The translations under genes were made by a program, and so were the position numbers. Positions 8,022-45,637 of a stretch of DNA of 54,258 bases are shown one piece after another (the stretch's first letter is position 1; every line of letters begins with the position of its first letter). The notes under the pieces were generated by a model. It had not been told where the DNA came from. It did not search any database and saw only the letters and a list, made by a program, of their open reading frames with translations. Where the stretch lies: assembly GCA_022823045.1 (NCBI GenBank), contig JAJDXW010000282.1, positions 1 to 54,258 of the forward strand, given 5' to 3'. This DNA is from Gammaproteobacteria bacterium (GTDB lineage Bacteria > Pseudomonadota > Gammaproteobacteria > HK1).

Positions 8022-8579
8022 CCGCTCTCCGGCCTTGCATGCAGTAACCGCCAGCACACGTTCGCGAACCACCGCGTGAGCGGACGACCCTTGGCGGAAC
8101 GGACGGCGACAGGGCGGCAGTCACCCGATCGCCATCCTTGATGCCATGCATCAGAGGATAGCGGAACAGATCCCGGGAACCCCCGGCGCACTGCCACACC
8201 CGCGTCGTGACCGGTACCGGAATCATCGTGCAAGGCCGTGCACCAGCCGGCACGACACCTCGACACCAGGCCGGCCCGTGACAGTGATCGGCTGACCATT
8301 GCGGAGCGCGATGGCAGCCGCCGCTCGCGATGCGCCCCGTCGGTGACCGGACTCGACACCACCTCCACGGGAAGGAACGATGGCTCGGGTTCCTGATTCA
8401 GGTCTACCGACGCTCTCCTGGAAACGGTGTCGAACAGTCGTTACAGAATCTGGCTGGATGTGCAGATTTCGTGCTGACTCACAGATCCACGTTTCGGTAT
8501 TGCACGGACCCGGTTATGGCTGTATTTTCGCCATACCCTGGCTGGCTCTCGCCTGGAGAAAACGACGTTGGAGGCGGAC

Positions 8580-8807
8580 ATGATGAAACTGAAGAAGGTA
8601 ACGATGAACCTGACCCAGCGGGATCTCGACAACGCGGAGGCCCTTACCGAGCGGCTCCATTCAAGAACCAAGGCATCGACCGTAAGCGCAGCCCTGGCAA
8701 TCACCGAGGGCATTACGAGACGCGTTGTAGACGGAAGTGAGCTGATGATCCGGAAGAAAGATGGCTCGCTTGAGACGGTCGTGATTGCTGGTCTGGACAC
8801 AGCGTGA
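8580..8807 (+). CDS. Small hypothetical protein, possibly RHH/antitoxin-like
   Basis: 75 aa: MMKLKKVTMNLTQRDLDNAEALTERLHSRTKASTVSAALAI.... GGAGG lies 5 nt upstream of the ATG at 8580 (the track start 8568 is a TTG). It sits in a locally lower-GC islet. The family was not recognised. Confidence 0.45.
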   Translation: MMKLKKVTMNLTQRDLDNAEALTERLHSRTKASTVSAALAITEGITRRVVDGSELMIRKKDGSLETVVIAGLDTA

Positions 8808-8865
8808 ATCCGACGCCACCTCTGGTGGGGGTAACCCGCCCGGCCCCGTATCCCGCTGAACGCTC

Positions 8866-9138
8866 ATGACCAACAACAGAGAACCGGATCCGGGCGACAT
8901 CGACGACTGGGAGTCAGCCGACGCCCCATCCGCGCCGTTCACCCTGATTCCCGCTTATGTTGGCGATCGCGTGTTCTACCGCGTCGTCGCGTGGTCGTTA
9001 GCCGGGATAGCCGCAGCAGCAGTGCTCGGCTGCATCCTCATTGGTGCATTGGGACAGGATGTTCCGGAGTCGATTGTCGCGCTGGGTTCCACTGCGGTTG
9101 GAGCGCTGGCCGGGGTATTGGCCTCGAACCGGAAATAG
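8866..9138 (+). CDS. Small hypothetical membrane protein (two predicted TM helices)
   Basis: 90 aa with an acidic N-terminus, then VVAWSLAGIAAAAVLGCILIGAL and IVALGSTAVGALAGVLA. No clear SD. Same strand as, and 58 nt after, the 8580 ORF. Confidence 0.4.
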   Translation: MTNNREPDPGDIDDWESADAPSAPFTLIPAYVGDRVFYRVVAWSLAGIAAAAVLGCILIGALGQDVPESIVALGSTAVGALAGVLASNRK

Positions 9139-9362
9139 TCCGTAACACATCGTATCGTTGCAGAATAGACATTCTGTCGCGTTTCGGGATGGCTCGGGGC
9201 TCCGGGCCTCGGCCCGGACCGCCGGCGAGCGGGTCGGGGCCGAGTTCCCGCGCCCCGCAGGTGGCGGGGTAGAGTCCGCGCAGGGGCCTGCCGGGTGCGC
9301 CGCCCACGTTCGGGCACCCGTCGGGGCGGCTTGATCACCACGAAAAACCACAGGGTCACGCA

Positions 9363-37785: not shown

Positions 37786-38883
37786 CTAAGGCCAGGCCGG
37801 CCGGTGGGCGGCGAGGGCCTCCCAGTCGAACACGATGCCGTGGCCCGGGCGGTCCGGCGCGCGCGCGTAGCCGTCCTCGACGGTCAGCGGGTCCTCCATG
37901 AACTGGTCGAGCCCGAAGGCATGCCACTCCAGGTAGGCCGCGTTCGGGGCCGCGGCCAGGAGGTGGATGTGCAGGTCGTGCGCACCGTGGCTCATCACCG
38001 GCAGGCCGTTCGCCTCGGCGAGATGCGCGATCTTCATGAACGGCGTGATGCCGCCGCAGGTGGTGAGGTCGGGCTCCGGGAAATCGACGCCCCCCGCTCC
38101 GATGAGCGCCGCGAACTCCGCGAGGGTGTGGTGGTTCTCGCCCGCCGCGAGCGGCACCTTGCCGAGCGAGCGGAGGTGCGCGTAGCCGGCGGTGTTGTCG
38201 GGCGCGATGGGCTCCTCCAGCCACACGAGGTCGAAGGGCTGGAGCAGGGTCATGGCGCGCATCGCCTGCTCCACCCGCCAGGCCTCGTTCGCGTCCGCCA
38301 TCATCTCGATGTCGTCGGGGAGGTGGTTGCGCATCGCCTCGACGCGGGCGATGTCCTCGGCGATGGTCGGGCGGCCGAGCCGCATCTTGACCGACCGGAA
38401 CCCCTGCTCGACGCTCGCCATGCCGCCCGCGAGGAGCCGGTCCACCGGGAAGTTGAGGTCGATGTTGCCGGCATAGGCCCGGACCGAGGGGTTGGCGCCG
38501 CCGAGGAGCCGCCAGAGCGGCGTGCCGAGCCGGTTGCCCTTGAGGTCCCAGAGCGCGGTATCGACCGCCGCCATCGCGAAGGCCACCGGTCCGCCCCGTC
38601 CGGCGTAGTGGTGGCGCTTGTAGATCTCGCGCCAGATCGCCTCGATGAGGTCCGGGTCGCGGCCCTCGACGCAGGGCCGGAAGGACCCGTCGCAGAGCGC
38701 CGCGATGGGGCCGCCCTGCTCCGCGTGCATCACGGTGTAGCCGATGCCGGTGGCTCCGTCGCTGTCCGTGATCCGCGCCGTCACCATGTCGAAGGCGGTC
38801 ATCACGCCCGCGGCCGAGGCTTCCATCGGCACGGGCAGCGGCAGACGGAAGAGATCGATTTCCAGCTTGTCGATGGTCGGCAC
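37786..38883 (-). CDS. Enolase superfamily enzyme (mandelate racemase / muconate lactonizing enzyme family)
   Basis: Motifs VDTALWDLKG, KMRLG, MADANEAW, WLEEP and AAGEN are present. The GTG start at 38883 has AAGGGGGG 8 nt upstream. The track ORF extends to 39276, but that extension is Arg/Pro-rich. Confidence 0.85.
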   Translation of the reverse strand: MPTIDKLEIDLFRLPLPVPMEASAAGVMTAFDMVTARITDSDGATGIGYTVMHAEQGGPIAALCDGSFRPCVEGRDPDLIEAIWREIYKRHHYAGRGGPVAFAMAAVDTALWDLKGNRLGTPLWRLLGGANPSVRAYAGNIDLNFPVDRLLAGGMASVEQGFRSVKMRLGRPTIAEDIARVEAMRNHLPDDIEMMADANEAWRVEQAMRAMTLLQPFDLVWLEEPIAPDNTAGYAHLRSLGKVPLAAGENHHTLAEFAALIGAGGVDFPEPDLTTCGGITPFMKIAHLAEANGLPVMSHGAHDLHIHLLAAAPNAAYLEWHAFGLDQFMEDPLTVEDGYARAPDRPGHGIVFDWEALAAHRPAWP

Positions 38884-39209
38884 GGGCGAGGCCCCCCTTT
38901 GTGCTTGTGCGTGCGGCAGTGATGTCGCGCCGTGGCGCGGCGGGGATGATTCACCATGCGCCGCGGGGAGGCAACCGGTCGCGGCCGCCCAGCAGCAGGC
39001 CTGACCCGGGCCGCCGCGTCGCCTCGCCCGGTGCGTCGGCGGCCGGGCGAGGAGAGCGCAGCGCGATGCCGCGGGAGCGCGGCCGCCGCAAGGCGCGGCG
39101 GCGACCACCGGAATCGTTGCAAAATGGGGACGACGCGCGGCTCTGAGGACCGGACGATCAGCGCCGCACGATGACCGCCGCCCCGTCAGCCGCCCCTTGT
39201 GCCGGACCC

Positions 39210-39812: not shown

Positions 39813-39981
39813 GCCCCGCCCGCCTCACGGGCGAACGCGGCTCTCCGTGGAATCCCGGGTCACTGCACGCGTCGGACGGATGAACGAAGCGGTGCTCCAC
39901 GGCTTGAGCCGCGTCCTTCGACTTCAGCTCGCGGCGATAGTACGATCGCCTTCCGAGGCTTCCGCAGCCAGAAGAGGACAG

Positions 39982-40206
39982 ATGTCTCGAAAAAGTCAGC
40001 ACGTAGTCCCCCGAGACGGAAGATGGGCGGTACGTAAGGGCGGAGCCGACCGCATAACCCGGAGCTTCAACACTCAACAGGAAGCGATTGAGGTAGCGCG
40101 AAACATCGCACGCAACCAGCAGACGGAACTCTATATTCACGGACGCGATCGTCGAATTCGCGAACGGAATTCCTATGGGAGAGACCCGTTTCCACCGAAG
40201 GGGTAG
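39982..40206 (+). CDS. DUF2188 domain protein
   Basis: 74 aa: MSRKSQHVVPRDGRWAVRKGGADRITRSFNTQQEAIEVARNIARNQQTELYIHGRDRRIRERNSYGRDPFPPKG follows the DUF2188 consensus closely. SD AGAAGAGGA is upstream. The region is low-GC. Confidence 0.75.
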   Translation: MSRKSQHVVPRDGRWAVRKGGADRITRSFNTQQEAIEVARNIARNQQTELYIHGRDRRIRERNSYGRDPFPPKG

Positions 40207-40214
40207 ACCTCGAT

Positions 40215-40847
40215 TTGCCTTGCTCCGACTTCAATCGAAATGTATTTGTAAACTGTCCGTTTGACCGTGAATACGAACACATTCTCCAGGCAATTCTCTT
40301 CTGCCTTGTGCGATTCGGACTAACGCCGCGCACTGCCTCCGAACGCAGTGACGCAGGTGAACCAAGGATCGAGAAAATCCTTGAACTGGTTGGGTCATCT
40401 CTCTATTCAATTCATGACCTAAGCAGATGTAAAGCGACGCAGGCCGCAGAACACTACAGACTCAATATGCCGTTCGAACTCGGTGTGGATTTCGGGTGCC
40501 GACATTACGGCGGCGCTCCACTCTCGAGCAAGGTCATTTTGATACTTGAAGAAGAACCATATCGCTACCAGGCGGCAATTTCCGATCTGGCTGGCAGTGA
40601 CATCGAGACACACAATGGCGATTACGAAACCGCCGTGAGAAAGGTACGCAACTGGCTCACCGGTCTGGGTGGATTTGAACGTATCGGTGCTGCCCGAATC
40701 CAGGCGGAATATGAAGACTTCTTGGAGTGGAATTACGACCGGCAACTCAAAGCCGGTTTCTCCGAACAAGACATCCAAGACTATTCGACCGCGGAACTTC
40801 TGCAAGCAATGTTCGACTGGAACAATCAGGGCAGACCAAGGGAATAA
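40215..40847 (+). CDS. Hypothetical protein with an N-terminal nucleoside 2-deoxyribosyltransferase-like / TIR-like (Rossmannoid) domain
   Basis: 210 aa. The TTG start lies 8 nt after the DUF2188 stop, with GAAGGGG upstream. The pattern VFVNCPFD.EY...I......G..PR.A.E...... then YSIHDLSR, NMPFELG and KVILILEE follows the layout of NDT/TIR-like effector or sensor domains. No confident family name. Confidence 0.5.
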   Translation: MPCSDFNRNVFVNCPFDREYEHILQAILFCLVRFGLTPRTASERSDAGEPRIEKILELVGSSLYSIHDLSRCKATQAAEHYRLNMPFELGVDFGCRHYGGAPLSSKVILILEEEPYRYQAAISDLAGSDIETHNGDYETAVRKVRNWLTGLGGFERIGAARIQAEYEDFLEWNYDRQLKAGFSEQDIQDYSTAELLQAMFDWNNQGRPRE

Positions 40848-40888
40848 GGCCGCCGCCCGTCCAGCGCGAACAGAAGCGCAGGCGGAGC

Positions 40889-41935
40889 TCAGGAAACGAC
40901 GCGGGCGGGGCGGGAGTGCCGCCGGCGTCTGACCGCCTCCATCGCCTCCTCGGTGCCGTCGTGCTCGGTGCCGAACCACCGATCGCAGGGCATGAACGGC
41001 GTTCCGTAGTTGCAGTCGTAGTGGCGGTGGTGAAGCTGGTGATGGAACGACCCGAGCATGAGGAGCGGCCGTCCCCGGAACGTCAGCGACTCGAACCCCG
41101 CATGAGAGACGGCCGCCCCCAGGGTGTTCCACTGCATGTGAAAGAGGACGTGGAGCGGATGCGAGGCGACGACGAGATGGACGAGGACGCTGCTCAGGTA
41201 GATGACGTGCTCGAGCGGATGCATCGAGAGCCCGGACCAGGGTCCGAGGTTGTCGTTGCGGTGGTGCAGGGCGTGGGCGAGCCGATAGAGCGGGCGCCAG
41301 TGCAGCAGGCGGTGGATGAAGTAGAAGTGCGTCGCCGCGAAGAACGGGACGGCGACGAACCCGAGGACGAACCAGACCGGGTGGGCGCGCGGGTCGAGGT
41401 AGAACGGCACGAGATGGTTGGCGTAGGCCCACATGAAGCCGACCTCGTAGGCGGTCCAGACGGTGACCCCGCTCGCGCTCGTCCAGAGCATGTTGTCGAG
41501 GAGCTGGCTCCGCGCGAAGAAGCGCTGGGGCGTCGCGTTGAGCGCCCGGGCATCGAACTTCCGCTCCTTCCCCTGGCGCCCGAGGGTGTGGAAGAAGAGG
41601 TGCAGTCCGCCCGCCACGAGGAGCATGAGCCCGAGGTTCCGGGCGTACATCTGGAGGATCCAGTCCGCCCGGAGCTCGGCGCAACGCTCGAGCGCGGGCT
41701 GAAGCCAGAGCCAGGTGATCGCGGCGAGGGCCCCGAACGGAAGCAGGACCGATCCGAGGAACGCGCGCGACAGGAGGTAGCGGAGCGTGACGAGAGGGCG
41801 GGGCGGCCAGACGAACACCGGGACCGGCGCGAGAGGGAGCGGCGGGTGCCATGCCCAGCCGGCGCGGAGCGGCGGCGACGGTGGCGGCTGGGCGGCATCC
41901 TGGTCCGCGTACGACGAGAACTTCGTGCCCGACAT
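40889..41935 (-). CDS. Fatty acid hydroxylase / sterol desaturase family membrane protein
   Basis: It has His boxes HRLLHW, HALHHRN and HHQLHHRH plus several TM segments. The ATG at 41935 has a GGAGGTG SD. The longer track ORF to 42298 is not supported. Confidence 0.8.
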   Translation of the reverse strand: MSGTKFSSYADQDAAQPPPSPPLRAGWAWHPPLPLAPVPVFVWPPRPLVTLRYLLSRAFLGSVLLPFGALAAITWLWLQPALERCAELRADWILQMYARNLGLMLLVAGGLHLFFHTLGRQGKERKFDARALNATPQRFFARSQLLDNMLWTSASGVTVWTAYEVGFMWAYANHLVPFYLDPRAHPVWFVLGFVAVPFFAATHFYFIHRLLHWRPLYRLAHALHHRNDNLGPWSGLSMHPLEHVIYLSSVLVHLVVASHPLHVLFHMQWNTLGAAVSHAGFESLTFRGRPLLMLGSFHHQLHHRHYDCNYGTPFMPCDRWFGTEHDGTEEAMEAVRRRRHSRPARVVS

Positions 41936-42291
41936 CCCCCGCACCTCCGCTCGATCCGGGATCGGCCGTGCATCGACCGTGCTTCGACCGCACACAACGG
42001 CGACGACGGCGCGGACGATTGTCGGCAGTCCCCCTCCGAATTCGCGCCCGTTCCCGACACCGCATGACGCAATCGGCACCGCGCGACGAATCAACGACCA
42101 ATGACGAATCTGTACCAAGTGGCCCGACCGTCCGCGACCGACGCCGACTGCCGCCTTCGCTGCGTCGCCGAATTCCCGCACTTCGCCGCTCCCACGCCAG
42201 GAACGTATCGCCAGTCCCGACCAGCCTCGTGCTGCCAGTGGGGGAAAGCGGAGACAAGCCGCTACGCCCGGCGTTCCGCCCGTGCTCCACG

Positions 42292-42325: not shown

Positions 42326-42604
42326 ATGATTCGGAGCTTCAGAAGCAGGGCGCTCAGGCGGTTCATGGAACGCGGCGACGAACGGCGCATCCATCCCGAG
42401 CACCGTGAGACCGTGCGCGACATCCTGGCCCGTCTGAACGCCTCCGCCGCCCCGAACGACATGGACGTGCCCGGCTTCCGGCTCCACCGGTTGAGGGGGG
42501 ACCAATCCGGCTTCTGGGCGGTCACCGTCCGCGCCAACTGGCGCGTGATCTTCCGATTCGAAGACGACCATGCCGTCGACGTCGACTACCTCGATTACCA
42601 CTAG
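42326..42604 (+). CDS. higB: HigB-type toxin (RelE/ParE superfamily, plasmid maintenance system killer)
   Basis: 92 aa: MIRSFRSRALRRFMERGDERRIHPEH...GFRLHRLRGDQSGFWAVTVRANWRVIFRFEDDHAVDVDYLDYH is the classic HigB pattern. Confidence 0.85.
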   Translation: MIRSFRSRALRRFMERGDERRIHPEHRETVRDILARLNASAAPNDMDVPGFRLHRLRGDQSGFWAVTVRANWRVIFRFEDDHAVDVDYLDYH

Positions 42605-42616
42605 AGAGGTCCTGCC

Positions 42617-42904
42617 ATGCTCATGCACAACCCGCCTCATCCTGGCGAGTTCATCAGGCGCCAGTGCCTCGAGCCTCTGGGACTGACCGTGACGGAAGCT
42701 GCGAAGGGGCTTGCCGTCTCGCGCAACACGCTCTCCATGCTGCTCAATGGACGGCTCGGTATCTCTCCCGAGATGGCCATCCGGCTATCGCAGGCCTTCG
42801 GAGGAAGCCCGCAAAGCTGGTTGCAGCAACAGATGCAGTACGACCTCTGGCACGTTCAGCAGAACCGGGAAGAAATCGCAGTCCGCAAGTTCGCCGCCGC
42901 ATGA
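42617..42904 (+). CDS. higA: HigA-type antitoxin (XRE-family HTH)
   Basis: 95 aa with [64 protein letters not shown]. It lies downstream of the toxin, the reversed order typical of higBA. Confidence 0.85.
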
Positions 42905-42993
42905 CGAAGCAGTTCGCGCTCGAACTCACCCCGCGCGGCATCACCTGCGTCGCGATTGCGCCCGGCCCGGTCGAGGGCGACATGGCCCGCATC
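42904..42993 (+). pseudogene. Orphan internal/C-terminal remnant of a short-chain dehydrogenase/reductase
   Basis: The frame starting at the higA stop reads [30 protein letters not shown]. This is the SDR segment that follows the catalytic YxxxK (LA.EL.P.GI.VN.IAPG.....M). No N-terminal Rossmann part exists upstream. Confidence 0.5.
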
Positions 42994-43015
42994 CATCCAC
43001 CCGAACCTGACCGCA

Positions 43016-43945
43016 ATGACCGAGCTCATCCTGCACCACTACGACATCTCCCCCTACGCGGAGAAGATTCGCCTCGCCTTCGGGCTCAAGGGACTCTCCT
43101 GGGCGTCGGTCATCGTCCCGGCGACCCTCCCGAAGCCGGACCTGATGCCGCTCACGGGGGGCTTTCGCCGCACCCCGGTGCTGCAGATCGGCGCCGACAT
43201 CTACTGCGACACCCTGCGCATTGCGATGGAGCTCGACCGTCGCTGCCCCGAACCCCGGCTCCTCCCCGAGAGCGGGGGAGGGGCCGGCTTCGACGGGATC
43301 CTCGCCACGTGGGCCGAGCGGGTGTTGATGTGGCCCACCGCACGCTACGTCACGGGAATGAACCGCGATGCCCTGCCGGAGGCCTTCTTCCGGGACCGCG
43401 CGGAGATGCGGGGCCACCCGGTGCCGACCCCGGACGAGGTCGCGGCCGGCCTTCCGCACGAGGAAGGCCAGCTCCGCCTCATGCTCGGCTGGGTGGAGGA
43501 CCTTCTCGCCGATGACCGGCGGTTCGCCCGCGGGCGGCTGCCCCGGCTCGCGGACCTCGCCCTCTACCAGCGGCTGTGGTGGTTGCGGGCGCTCGACGGC
43601 CGGGCGGCGCATGCCCTCGACGACTTCCCGCGGACCCGGGACTGGATTACCCGCATCGCGTCCGTCGGGCACGGGGAGCGCTCCGAGCTCTCTCCGCGCG
43701 ACGCCCTTCGCATCGCATCGGCCGCGGAGCCGGCCGACCCGCCCCGCGGCGTCCCGGACGATGACCTCGCGCCGCAGGGCCGAGTTCGAGTCACGACCGA
43801 GGACTTCGCGCGGGACCCGGTGGAGGGCGAGCTCGTCCACGCCACCCGAGAGACGATCGCCATACGGCGCGACGACCCCGAAGTCGGCCGCGTGCACGTC
43901 CACTTCCCGTGCCTCGGATACGCGGTGACGCCATCGCCGAAGTGA
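43016..43945 (+). CDS. Glutathione S-transferase family protein with a roughly 80-aa C-terminal extension
   Basis: The N-terminal LILHHYDISPYAEKIRLAFGLKGLSW...TPVLQIGADIYCDT is thioredoxin-like and GST-type, followed by a helical domain. An additional beta-rich tail is present. Confidence 0.7.
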   Translation: MTELILHHYDISPYAEKIRLAFGLKGLSWASVIVPATLPKPDLMPLTGGFRRTPVLQIGADIYCDTLRIAMELDRRCPEPRLLPESGGGAGFDGILATWAERVLMWPTARYVTGMNRDALPEAFFRDRAEMRGHPVPTPDEVAAGLPHEEGQLRLMLGWVEDLLADDRRFARGRLPRLADLALYQRLWWLRALDGRAAHALDDFPRTRDWITRIASVGHGERSELSPRDALRIASAAEPADPPRGVPDDDLAPQGRVRVTTEDFARDPVEGELVHATRETIAIRRDDPEVGRVHVHFPCLGYAVTPSPK

Positions 43946-43982
43946 TCGACCTCGCGCGGAACAGACGCGTTCCGGCACTTGT

Positions 43983-44046
43983 CACGTCATGATTCACGCG
44001 CAATACCACGTCATGATTGACGTGTCTTCATACACCAAAATATACT
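43983..44046 (+). promoter_or_regulatory. Fic promoter region: two 16-nt direct repeats (second is an 18-bp palindrome) overlapping a TTGACG-N18-TATACT promoter
   Basis: CACGTCATGATTCACG (43983-43998) and CACGTCATGATTGACG (44007-22) match at 15 of 16 positions, 24 bp apart. The second extends to the palindrome CACGTCA-TGAT-TGACGTG (44007-44024). The -35 TTGACG lies at 44017-22 and the -10 TATACT at 44041-46. The stretch is strongly AT-rich. Confidence 0.4.
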
Positions 44047-44089
44047 TGTAACAACACGACACGATAAACTTGCAAGACAACCACAACCC

Positions 44090-45637
44090 ATGGCTGCGCC
44101 GAGCGAGAAACTTGCCGCATCGCTGACACGGCTCGAACAACTCCAGAAAGGCGGACGTCGTGTCTTTCGCTCCGCGGAGTTGACCCGCGTCCATCGCGAA
44201 CGTCTGATCAGGAGCGGCTATCTGCGCGAAGTCATGAAGGGTTGGCTGATCTCCTCCAGCCCGGAAGCCGCGGCCGGCGACACGACCCCCTGGTTCGCGT
44301 CCTTCTGGGAGTTCTGCACGTCGTATTGCACGGCGCGATTCGGAGCCGACTGGCACCTGTCCCCGGAGCAGTCCCTGCTGCTCCATGCGGAAAACACCGT
44401 CATCCCGCCGCAGCTCATCATCTACACGCCGAAGGGCACCAACAACACCGTAGCGCTTCCCTTCGGTACGTCGCTCTACGACCTCAGGCGACGGGGGATG
44501 CCTCCGCAGGCAGACCTGACCAAACGCGACGGCCTGAACCTGATTGCGCCGGAAGCCGCGCTGGTCAGCGTTCCCGAAGTCTGCTTTGTCCGCAATCCGG
44601 TCGAAGCCCACGTTGTCCTCTCCGGAATTCCCGATGCCTCCAATCTTCTGCGGAGACTCCTCGACGCGGGCCATTCGGTGATTGCCGGCCGGCTGGCCGG
44701 TGCGTTCCGCCGCATCGGGCGCGGTGACATCGCGGGTGAAATCGTCACCGTCATGAAGCGTGCGGGTCATGACGTTCGGGAATCCGACCCGTTCGAGCCG
44801 GCGCATGTCCTTCACACCCTGCCCCGGGCACGCGCGCCGATCGTCGATCGTCTGCATTCGCTGTGGGAGTCGATGCGCGAGTCGGTCATTGCCGCGTTTC
44901 CGGCCGCGCCCGGACTGCCGGAGGACACCGACGCCTACCTCGCCTTCGTTGACGACCTGTATCGGAGCGACGCCTATCACTCGCTGTCGATCGAGGGCTA
45001 CCGCGTCACCATGGAACTCATCGAGCGCGTCCGCACCGGCGACTGGGACCCCGACAACCGGGACAGTGACCGGCAGAGTCGCGATGCGCTTGCCGCACGC
45101 GGCTACTGGCAGGCGTTTCAGCTCGTCCGGGAAACGGTCCGCGCCGCGATCGCCGGGGACGATCCCGGCGTTCACGCACGCGCGGCCCACCAGGACTGGT
45201 ACCGCGAGCTGTTCCAACCCTCCGTGGCGGCCGGCCTCATCCCGGCTTCGGCCCTGGCCGGCTACCGGAACGGCCCCGTCTTTCTTCGCGGTTCGCGCCA
45301 CGTCCCGCCTCGCTGGGAAACGGTGCGCGACGCCATGCCGGCGTATTTCGATCTGCTCGAGAGCGAGGCGGAACCGTCCGTCAAGGCCGTCCTCGGGCAC
45401 TGGCTGTTCGGCTATATCCACCCCTACGCGGACGGCAACGGCCGCATGGCGCGCTTCGTCATGAACGCGCTTCTCGCGTCCGGCGGCTATCCGTGGACCG
45501 TGATCCAGGTCGATGATCGAGACGCCTATCTCGCGGCGCTCGAGCGAGCGAGCATCGAACAGGACATGGAGCCGTTCGCGCGGTTCCTGGCCCGGCGCGT
45601 CGAATCCGCCATGGACCGTGCCGGCACGAAGTCATGA
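44090..45637 (+). CDS. Fic family protein (class II, intramolecular inhibitory helix) with a large N-terminal domain
   Basis: 515 aa. The Fic motif HPYADGNGRMAR is at aa 444-455 (nt 45419-45454). The inhibitory motif S-x3-E-G (SLSIEG) is at aa 298-303 (nt 44981-44998). Confidence 0.9.
   Translation: MAAPSEKLAASLTRLEQLQKGGRRVFRSAELTRVHRERLIRSGYLREVMKGWLISSSPEAAAGDTTPWFASFWEFCTSYCTARFGADWHLSPEQSLLLHAENTVIPPQLIIYTPKGTNNTVALPFGTSLYDLRRRGMPPQADLTKRDGLNLIAPEAALVSVPEVCFVRNPVEAHVVLSGIPDASNLLRRLLDAGHSVIAGRLAGAFRRIGRGDIAGEIVTVMKRAGHDVRESDPFEPAHVLHTLPRARAPIVDRLHSLWESMRESVIAAFPAAPGLPEDTDAYLAFVDDLYRSDAYHSLSIEGYRVTMELIERVRTGDWDPDNRDSDRQSRDALAARGYWQAFQLVRETVRAAIAGDDPGVHARAAHQDWYRELFQPSVAAGLIPASALAGYRNGPVFLRGSRHVPPRWETVRDAMPAYFDLLESEAEPSVKAVLGHWLFGYIHPYADGNGRMARFVMNALLASGGYPWTVIQVDDRDAYLAALERASIEQDMEPFARFLARRVESAMDRAGTKS

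Follow-up and report, generated by a model that had tools for sequence, protein, structure and literature searches.

A compositionally foreign gene pair of DUF2188 and a divergent TIR/NDT-fold protein, a possible toxin-antitoxin-like cassette, in a gammaproteobacterial contig

A two-gene cassette, composed of a small gene for a DUF2188 protein and a gene for a 210-aa protein, was analysed in a 54,258-nt stretch of gammaproteobacterial DNA (contig JAJDXW010000282.1, positions 1 to 54,258; the whole of it is referred to as the window). The two open reading frames (ORFs) are found on the plus strand with 8 nt between them (39982-40206 and 40215-40847; Table 1), and occupy a trough in base composition: the G+C content of positions 39982-40847 is 52.1%, against 69.1 +/- 3.2% in 59 non-overlapping windows (z = -5.3), and represents the minimum among the 866-nt windows of the entire sequence. 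The same difference is visible at the third codon positions, where the cassette genes have a G+C content of 53-56% and the alkB-like gene that adjoins them upstream one of 92%. A first-pass annotation, made by a model from the letters of this DNA, had placed here a sharp G+C drop (from a hand count of 27/60 in positions 40201-40260, which proved exact), two ORFs with an 8-nt gap, a DUF2188 protein and a TTG-initiated protein with a layout like that of nucleoside 2'-deoxyribosyltransferases (NDT) and TIR domains, including a conserved Glu in an ELG block; as detailed below, all of these observations were borne out.

On the right-hand side the cassette faces a convergent fatty-acid hydroxylase gene, the stop codon of which is situated at 40889-40891. 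No sigma-70 promoter or consensus, Rfam family or terminator was found in the cassette and its surroundings, and the spacer that precedes the DUF2188 gene showed no conservation when compared with the upstream regions of other loci. Exact-sequence records of the window's own two proteins were not found.

The upstream protein (stop codon at 40204-40206) matches Pfam PF09954 over the full profile (88.3 bits against a cutoff of 22, E = 3.7e-25, profile positions 1-62 of 62), and the Pfam scan detected no domain beyond DUF2188. It is also matched over its full length by the PDC-S16 models of PADLOC (PDLC04942, E = 6.4e-37; PDLC04941, E = 1.5e-36; positions 1-74 of 75), as well as by PHROG 3220 (E = 2.8e-29). 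The PDC set comprises candidates that stem from genes embedded in BREX, DISARM or type I restriction-modification systems (Payne et al. 2024, bioRxiv 10.1101/2024.01.29.577857). Furthermore, DUF2188 has been connected with defence and with operons under CapH/CapP control, among them one that also encodes a TIR protein that binds cyclic nucleoside monophosphates (cNMP) (Lau et al. 2022), and 'DUF2188' figures among about 29 putative Thoeris effector types that have a canonical TIR as their neighbour (Yirmiya et al. 2025, bioRxiv 10.64898/2025.12.03.692087). A HicB-N-terminal-like beta-beta-beta-alpha fold, related to PDB 5JN6, has been proposed for the domain, with a published HHpred E-value of 0.5 that is not significant (PMC13621843).

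The TTG at 40215 is the earliest possible start of the second gene downstream of an in-frame stop (40095-40097), and the next one (a GTG at codon 32) would drop the invariant N13 and P15; the homologues have both the length of 210 aa and the N-terminus in common with the window's protein. No match to this protein was obtained in Pfam, NCBIfam or PADLOC (in Pfam none even at E <= 10). The family is large, as 4,542 clusters at 90% identity match the window protein, and an exhaustive hidden Markov model (HMM) scan with HMMER returned 2,330 clusters at 50% identity (E <= 1e-10 for 1,310), the members being named 'hypothetical protein' wherever a source name is shown. In one public record (L169, AP027328.1, 5232-5615) the annotation shortens the gene to 127 aa, the TTG start being apparently overlooked, and in another (L171, NZ_CP064705.1, 5139-5597) it gives 152 aa, where an ATG that overlaps the stop of the upstream gene was apparently overlooked. 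As true starts are apparently missed in this way, the family is probably under-called in databases.

The structure of the 210-aa protein was modelled with AlphaFold on a 60-sequence alignment (identity down to 33%), which gave a predicted local distance difference test score (pLDDT) of 94 and a predicted template-modelling score (pTM) of 0.91; an earlier model, built from a shallow alignment of members that were all >64% identical, reached a pLDDT of 62 and was discarded. The model consists of a Rossmannoid core (b1 9-13, a1 18-33, b2 37-39, a2 51-60, b3 64-68, a3 84-98, b4 107-112, a4 137-151) followed by a three-helix domain. The latter is variable across the wider family, many members matching only residues about 1-150/170, and could possibly serve for partner binding or oligomerisation. 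Apart from this arrangement, a 406-aa protein (P0154; L168, 432-1652) combines the TIR-like core with a C-terminal region that has a weak Mrr_cat match (E = 0.006); its contig, 2.7 kb long, lacks DUF2188.

In Foldseek searches of the PDB the top matches were TIR domains, namely the TIR-APAZ protein of SPARTA (E = 1.1e-3), the plant proteins RPP1, RPS4 and RUN1, SfSTING, TcpB/BtpA and AbTir; TIR domains made up most of the 50 best matches (probability 1.00), with target-normalised template-modelling scores of up to 0.70 (AbTir, 7uxu). Nucleoside 2'-deoxyribosyltransferases ranked slightly below (8pqt, E = 9.6e-3; also 8rh3), and among predicted viral structures a CAP12/Pycsar TIR protein came first, together with deoxyribosyltransferases. 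Thus, model and matches alike display the flavodoxin-like alpha/beta fold of the TIR superfamily. At the level of sequence profiles, PF10137 (the effector TIR of CAP12/Pycsar) appeared below threshold in 12 of 150 family representatives (best E = 4.7e-4) and PF01582 (TIR) in 4 of them, while no unrelated family appeared in more than 3. In two plasmid homologues (L170 and L171) the PF10137 match is collinear, residues 33-130 corresponding to profile positions 22-113 of 119. Two family-profile sequence searches of the PDB recovered nothing relevant, and PF05014 was absent from the 25 most-matched families of the 60 and 150 members scanned (E <= 10, E <= 1). Because the fold matches are strong and the profile matches sub-threshold or not significant, we describe the protein as a divergent TIR/NDT-fold domain that is nearest to the effector-type TIRs, and not as a demonstrated member of any curated family.

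Ten residues are invariant in the 60-sequence alignment (F11, N13, P15, R51, D68, R82, N84, E88, G90 and S123). Of these, E88 is placed in the first turn of the helix that follows strand 3, which we take to be the position of the catalytic Glu in both TIR NADases and NDT/DNPH1 enzymes, and it is retained down to 33% identity. Human DNPH1 (the query sequence used is identical to PDB 4p5e) has its Glu within YELG, and a variant of DNPH1 with Q in that place (YQLG) is found in the PDB.

Table 1. Coordinates of the cassette, of the features around it and of stand-alone DUF2188 genes in phages (positions refer to the window unless a locus is given).
Feature	Position	Strand	Remark
41-nt remnant, 3' end of short-chain dehydrogenase gene	38977..39017	+	left breakpoint relative to L172
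Inverted repeat, left arm, 11 bp, GC-only	39813..39823	+	judged chance
169-nt spacer, alkB-like stop to DUF2188 start	39813..39981	+	presumed promoter/leader; G+C begins dropping, about 62-64%
DUF2188 gene, ATG start, 74 aa, net charge +9, isoelectric point (pI) 11.5	39982..40206	+	Pfam PF09954; proposed small partner/antitoxin
Shine-Dalgarno-like GAAGGGG in the last DUF2188 codons (P-K-G), 11 nt before the TTG	40197..40203	+	from the sequence
210-aa TIR/NDT-fold protein gene, TTG start, net charge -11, pI 5.0	40215..40847	+	proposed effector/toxin
TIR-like Rossmannoid core, residues 1-152	40215..40670	+	AlphaFold model and alignment
Glu88 codon, NMPFELG block, start of helix a3	40476..40478	+	candidate catalytic residue; invariant in alignments
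C-terminal three-helix domain, residues about 159-204	40689..40826	+	AlphaFold model
41-nt spacer between the cassette and the convergent fatty-acid hydroxylase gene	40848..40888	.	contains the right edge of the foreign segment
Inverted repeat, right arm, 11 bp	40901..40911	-	within the last hydroxylase codons; judged chance
Stand-alone DUF2188, Streptococcus phage Javan35	L175 3504-3728		no TIR-like partner
Stand-alone DUF2188, Gordonia phage Easley	L178 1998-2216		no TIR-like partner

The co-occurrence of the two families was assessed in 82 loci (80 from a scan of one genome per species and two duplicate look-ups), and DUF2188 was found directly upstream of the 210-aa protein gene, on the same strand, in 80 of them. 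The pairing was encountered again in five further look-ups (including a member of 34% identity), and in one case the two are joined in a natural DUF2188-enzyme fusion protein (P0121). The two proteins co-evolve, as indicated by a mirror-tree test on their pairwise identities in 55 loci (r = 0.60, Mantel p = 0.001). Hence, the first-pass proposal to look for co-occurrence was answered in favour of a unit, and we found no description of this near-obligate pairing in the searched literature or profile libraries. The earlier statement that the pair is not a described system stands for the 210-aa family, which is unannotated, and falls for DUF2188, which is a PDC-S16 candidate and a putative Thoeris effector.

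The organisation of the pair is asymmetric. The intergenic gap is mostly 0-9 nt across loci, and in 59 intact loci the start codon of the enzyme gene is TTG in 38 (64%), GTG in 10 and ATG in 11, while that of the DUF2188 gene is ATG in 51, GTG in 8 and TTG in none. A Shine-Dalgarno-like motif lies at -22 to -4 of the enzyme gene in 39/55 loci; the DUF2188 protein ends in PPKG in 31 and in PPRG in 7 of the same number, and it is the PPKG codons that supply the AAGG of this motif. The placement of such a motif inside the DUF2188 gene suggests translational coupling. The two proteins carry, on average, opposite charges (+7.6 and a pI of 10.7 for DUF2188, -7.9 and a pI of 5.4 for the enzyme), which together with the natural fusion is suggestive of direct binding. 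A programmed frameshift or read-through that would join the two ORFs was ruled out, because gap length and frame relation differ among loci. There is no third conserved gene: among 140 immediate neighbours at 37 loci, no family occurred in more than 4 loci.

The partners can be exchanged. The two plasmid relatives introduced above retain the NCPFD, IHDL and NMPLELG motifs of the enzyme, and upstream of it they carry a different small gene, without DUF2188 or any other Pfam signal; the coupling is still tight, the enzyme starting with a TTG 1 nt past the stop in one and with an ATG that overlaps it (TAATG) in the other. Conversely, DUF2188 without the enzyme was matched in 32 phage records (most at 35-58% identity), with stand-alone genes situated near integrase or cI genes in temperate Streptococcus and Gordonia phages, where possible roles include anti-defence and that of an orphan antitoxin. 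In the Mycobacterium phage prophiT48-1 (L177, 1797-2731), from the prophages of M. abscessus, a gene for a BrnT-like toxin precedes one for a 197-aa protein annotated as 'antitoxin', and the latter ends in a DUF2188 domain of 74 residues that shares 41% identity with the protein of the window.

The cassette is present in at least seven phyla, with amino-acid identities to the window protein of 47-78%, its hosts comprising Spirochaetia, Acidobacteriota (Vicinamibacterales, Bryobacterales), Alpha- and Gammaproteobacteria, Gemmatimonadota, Latescibacterota, Candidatus Binatia and Actinomycetota (Propionibacteriaceae). The family also occurs in free-living bacteria of soil and plants, and on plasmids of these (Methylobacterium, Sphingomonas, Variovorax, Bradyrhizobium, Propionicimonas). 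Enzyme homologues were recovered from 17 alphaproteobacterial plasmids and from none of 50,697 phage records, and one plasmid copy comes after the transposition genes TniA/TniB/TniQ. The G+C content of the cassette is at least 5 points below that of its flanks in 61/70 loci (mean 53% vs 64%). A lower G+C content is also seen in five Rhodobacterales genomes, at one syntenic and apparently long-resident position, from which it follows that the low G+C is partly intrinsic and not solely the mark of a recent arrival. Taken as a whole, the cassette is a compositionally foreign and horizontally spread, almost obligate couple. Metagenome-assembled genomes with names that point to an association with sponges (e.g., Candidatus Poriferihabitaceae) are the source of several of the closest homologues, and the 70-80% identity across phyla could result from recent exchange within one habitat.

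At other loci the neighbours of the cassette include transposases, integrases, PIN/Phd, Fic, NERD, reverse transcriptase, ThsA_Macro and AAA_15/DUF4276, and plain housekeeping genes adjoin it at some of them. An enrichment near defence genes, for which the first-pass annotation had proposed a search, was not demonstrated: the 140 neighbours from 37 loci were heterogeneous, with Mrr, ResIII, AAA_15/21 and integrase genes scattered among them and defence genes only occasional, in a count that had no far-flank control. Two further neighbourhoods may be recorded here. In L163/L164 (8900-9865) the next gene downstream of the cassette, encoded on the other strand and surrounded by transposases and an integrase, is a ThsA_Macro gene (PF20016); the DUF2188 gene of these loci was missed by the gene finder and is present by HMM search. 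In L001/L005 the cassette is adjoined by an ankyrin-repeat gene.

The nearest relative found for the region is a 3.8-kb contig (L172), which is similar to the window on both sides of the cassette (88% nucleotide identity over 40909-42092, on the hydroxylase side, and 95% over 38289-38990, on the MR_MLE side). Between the convergent stops of the short-chain dehydrogenase and hydroxylase genes it has 146 nt, compared with 1,884 nt in the window, and these 1,884 nt contain the alkB-like gene and the cassette. Thus, the comparison with relatives suggested in the first-pass annotation found the cassette absent from the same position. The dehydrogenase gene is intact in L172, while the window holds its 3' remnant (Table 1) and a second fragment at 42897-43004; the two fragments bracket a block formed by the alkB-like gene, the cassette, the hydroxylase gene and the HigBA pair described below, from which we conclude that the region is rearranged relative to L172. 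The difference is a rearranged replacement and not a clean insertion or an empty site, and the left edge of the foreign DNA can accordingly not be fixed; to the right of the cassette, homology resumes at 40909. An empty-site search by way of the alkB-like neighbour gave no syntenic case among 80 metagenome loci, and the corresponding search by way of the hydroxylase gene, which led to L172, was a partial success.

The island had also been described as bracketed by an 11-bp inverted repeat, taken as weak evidence of an insertion boundary. The 11-mers are present, exactly where they had been placed, and their role as a boundary was ruled out on two grounds. The 11-mer has 3 exact occurrences in the window and 17 with up to one mismatch, against 14.7 +/- 3.8 expected from shuffled sequence. 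Moreover, the right arm falls in native hydroxylase coding sequence, as this stretch is similar in L172, which lacks the cassette.

Other genes of the vicinity deserve mention. A second toxin-antitoxin pair (42326-42904) lies beyond the hydroxylase gene at a distance of 1.4 kb from the cassette and consists of a HigB-like toxin (PF05015, E = 6e-20) with a HigA-like antitoxin that has an HTH_3 domain. A 515-aa ORF with the Fic motif HPYADGNGR is encoded at 44090-45637, within 4 kb of the cassette; its 5' region and the spacer upstream of it make up the third-lowest-G+C stretch in the window (~53% at 43900-44200), and the ORF may represent a further mobile or stress gene of the same small variable region. 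The second-lowest-G+C stretch is found at about 8325-9190 (58.8%).

We reason that the role of the cassette is most likely that of a toxin-antitoxin-like or anti-phage module. More specifically, we tentatively favour, with a confidence that stays a little short of even, a TIR-fold glycosidase toxin that acts on NAD+ (nicotinamide adenine dinucleotide) or nucleotides and is restrained by DUF2188. This reading draws on the combination of a small gene with a strong start and a coupled enzyme gene with a weak one, the opposite charges, the co-evolution of the two proteins, the exchange of partners and the horizontal spread; from these features we infer the enzymatic activity, the toxicity, the neutralisation by direct binding and the trigger. 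The anatomy of the pair is that of a type II toxin-antitoxin system (co-directional and coupled genes, no third gene, mobile, scattered), including the partner exchange seen when the plasmid relatives carry another small gene and when DUF2188 accompanies a BrnT-like toxin in a prophage. It is better fitted by such a system than by a signalling one.

In the mechanism that we envisage, the pair would act as a self-contained, horizontally mobile two-gene toxin-antitoxin or abortive-infection module. The 210-aa protein would be an N-glycosidase that most likely hydrolyses NAD+ or, as an alternative, nucleotides; Glu88 would be its catalytic residue, and several invariant Arg/Lys/Ser residues would probably bind phosphate. 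The basic DUF2188 protein, made from the same transcript, would probably be produced in excess, since it has an ATG start whereas the enzyme has a TTG, with a ribosome-binding site buried in the end of DUF2188; it would bind the acidic enzyme and hold it inactive. If DUF2188 were lost, degraded or titrated (on infection by a phage, under stress or when the element is lost), the enzyme would be set free and would deplete NAD+ or nucleotides, and growth would stop.

Several observations weigh against this proposal of a DUF2188-restrained toxin. All sequence-profile links to TIR lie under the Pfam thresholds, the two plasmid homologues reaching 15-16 bits against PF10137 (cutoff 24.7), and hhalign comparisons of the family profile were not significant, either with two canonical TIR alignments (from Table S1 of Yirmiya et al.; P about 0.1) or with human DNPH1. 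DUF2188 has no recognisable DNA-binding domain that could serve autoregulation, and neither 5JN6 nor HicB was recovered from the PDB by phmmer or by hmmsearch with a 56-sequence DUF2188 profile. Both proteins are 65-82% identical across phyla, which is unusually conserved for a conflict system. About one locus in five holds a broken copy (the enzyme in 13, DUF2188 in 2-3, both in 1); the excess of broken enzyme genes was considered as toxin decay and dropped, and nothing is inferred from it because it matches the 2.8:1 ratio of the gene lengths, which predict it. Finally, in Rhodobacterales the cassette may work together with the AAA ATPase and DUF6638 genes of a conserved cluster (see below).

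A broader idea, which we hold to be doubtful, is that TIR-fold enzymes at large have in DUF2188 a dedicated protein partner, acting as inhibitor or as trigger sensor, in which case the stand-alone phage copies would provide counter-defence or cross-immunity by neutralising TIR toxins of the host, and the present cassette would be the minimal founding example of a class of protein-restrained TIR toxins. The contexts that speak for it are the 210-aa family, the TIRs of the putative DUF2188-type Thoeris and the cluster with a cNMP-binding TIR protein.

Among the rival explanations, the one that survives best assigns the pair a role outside of conflict: the enzyme would be an NDT/DNPH1-like N-glycosidase that clears or salvages unusual (deoxy)nucleotides, with DUF2188 as a regulatory or stabilising subunit. 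It can draw on the Foldseek matches to NDTs and to phage proteins (dUTPase-annotated, and CMP/hydroxymethyl-CMP hydrolases), on the likeness of FELG to the YELG of DNPH1, on the very high sequence conservation, and on the many housekeeping neighbours together with the syntenic, apparently long-resident position in Rhodobacterales. We nevertheless consider it unlikely, as the patchy cross-phylum spread, the foreign G+C content, the carriage on plasmids and transposons and the ~20% of broken copies are unlike what is seen for housekeeping genes; moreover, the partner is replaced in divergent relatives, and PF05014 was not among the 25 most-matched families (E <= 10), while TIR families recur.

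Next, the pair might be a Thoeris-like signalling system, in which the TIR-like protein makes an NAD-derived signal (an isomer of cyclic ADP-ribose, or similar) that DUF2188 binds as effector or adaptor. The anatomy argues otherwise: a 74-aa DUF2188 protein has no enzymatic, pore-forming or transmembrane part, and gene order, coupling and weak start codon better suit a restrained toxin. The affinities of the enzyme point the same way, since the nearest Pfam family is that of the NAD-depleting effector (PF10137) and not of the ThsB type, and profile comparison showed no significant similarity to TIRs from the putative Thoeris of DUF2188 type. Set against these points, the listing of DUF2188 as a putative Thoeris effector type (Yirmiya et al. 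2025), its occurrence in one cluster together with a TIR protein that binds cNMP (Lau et al. 2022) and the ThsA_Macro gene beside the cassette in L163/L164 do not, in our judgement, raise the signalling hypothesis above a slim probability.

The pair may also be a part of a larger unrecognised system rather than autonomous. In five Rhodobacterales loci (L013, L015, L028, L036 and L041; e.g., L036:4468-10257) the cassette is embedded in a conserved co-directional cluster of tightly spaced genes, ordered as a 396-aa protein without Pfam match, an AAA ATPase of 645 aa, DUF2188, the 210-aa protein, a DUF6638 protein of 449 aa and a protein of about 90 aa; the sole PADLOC match among the cluster proteins is a weak TRIP13 hit for the ATPase (E = 3.8e-4). 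This six-gene order on one strand speaks for a larger system, whereas the window and most other loci have unrelated neighbours, and no third family occurred in more than 4 loci among the 140 neighbours counted, for which reason we judge dependence on further genes to be improbable in general. The last alternative, that symbionts use the TIR-like protein to interact with a eukaryotic host (for instance a sponge), which would receive or sense it as with bacterial TcpB/TcpC, could appeal to the sponge-suggesting record titles (Candidatus Poriferihabitaceae), the ankyrin-repeat gene adjoining in L001 and the TcpB/BtpA TIRs among the Foldseek matches, and is very improbable given that the family also occurs in free-living soil and plant bacteria and plasmids, that no secretion signal or link to a secretion system was seen, and that the obligate small partner would be left unexplained.

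Enzymes of the TIR fold that process NAD+ have a central place in the immunity of bacteria, plants and animals. The family found here (>4,500 non-redundant proteins; >2,300 clusters at 50% identity) is invisible to Pfam, NCBIfam and PADLOC. Should the reading as a DUF2188-restrained TIR toxin be true, a TIR inhibited by a protein would join those activated by ligands and by oligomerisation, DUF2188 (a widespread orphan domain that is also found in temperate phages) would gain a concrete function, and a very small system (866 nt) would become directly testable in E. coli. If the enzyme were instead to cleanse nucleotides, it would constitute a new branch of the NDT/DNPH1 group.

The components of the cassette are of known kinds (a TIR-fold enzyme, a DUF2188 protein, a toxin-antitoxin-like architecture), and PADLOC already lists one of the two genes as a candidate. 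PDC-S16 is, however, a single-gene candidate, matched by the window's DUF2188, and the 210-aa partner is absent from PADLOC. The putative DUF2188-type Thoeris resembles the cassette in that a TIR-fold gene lies beside DUF2188 (Yirmiya et al. 2025); its TIRs are canonical (DxFxSH...W..xEL) and seen by standard TIR models, which the 210-aa protein is not, and its authors treat DUF2188 as the effector, whereas in our reading of the cassette it is the restraining partner. Thoeris is defined by a ThsB-type TIR and an effector with a signal-sensing and a toxic domain; in the cassette the TIR-like protein escapes TIR models and is nearest to the effector-type TIRs, and the partner is a 74-aa DUF2188 protein with no further domain.

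With the effector-type TIRs found in CBASS (the anti-phage signalling system based on cyclic oligonucleotides) and Pycsar (PF10137, CAP12/PycTIR; SfSTING, 7un8) the 210-aa protein shares, according to Foldseek, the same three-layer alpha/beta fold, and both are short proteins with an N-terminal TIR-type domain, a C-terminal extra domain and a conserved Glu where the helix after strand 3 begins. It differs from them in having neither a cyclic-nucleotide-binding or STING domain nor a cyclase partner, and in its regulation, for which we propose a small protein (DUF2188) instead of a nucleotide ligand. NDT and DNPH1 (Rcl; PF05014) have in common with it the fold, an acidic residue that ends strand 3 (D68) and a Glu in an [FY]ELG motif at the start of the next helix (FELG here, YELG in DNPH1), while the extra C-terminal helical domain and the near-obligate DUF2188 partner set it apart. 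The HicB and BrnA antitoxins are akin to DUF2188 through the proposed fold and the BrnT-adjacent 'antitoxin' context; the toxin proposed for the cassette is no RNase. Parallels in anatomy are offered by RES-Xre and MbcT-MbcA, type II toxin-antitoxin systems that target NAD+, in which a small upstream antitoxin is coupled to an NAD+-degrading toxin and which are likewise solitary, mobile and scattered; the folds of RES and MbcT are ADP-ribosyltransferase-like, their antitoxins are helix-turn-helix or helical proteins, and these folds are unrelated to those of the cassette.

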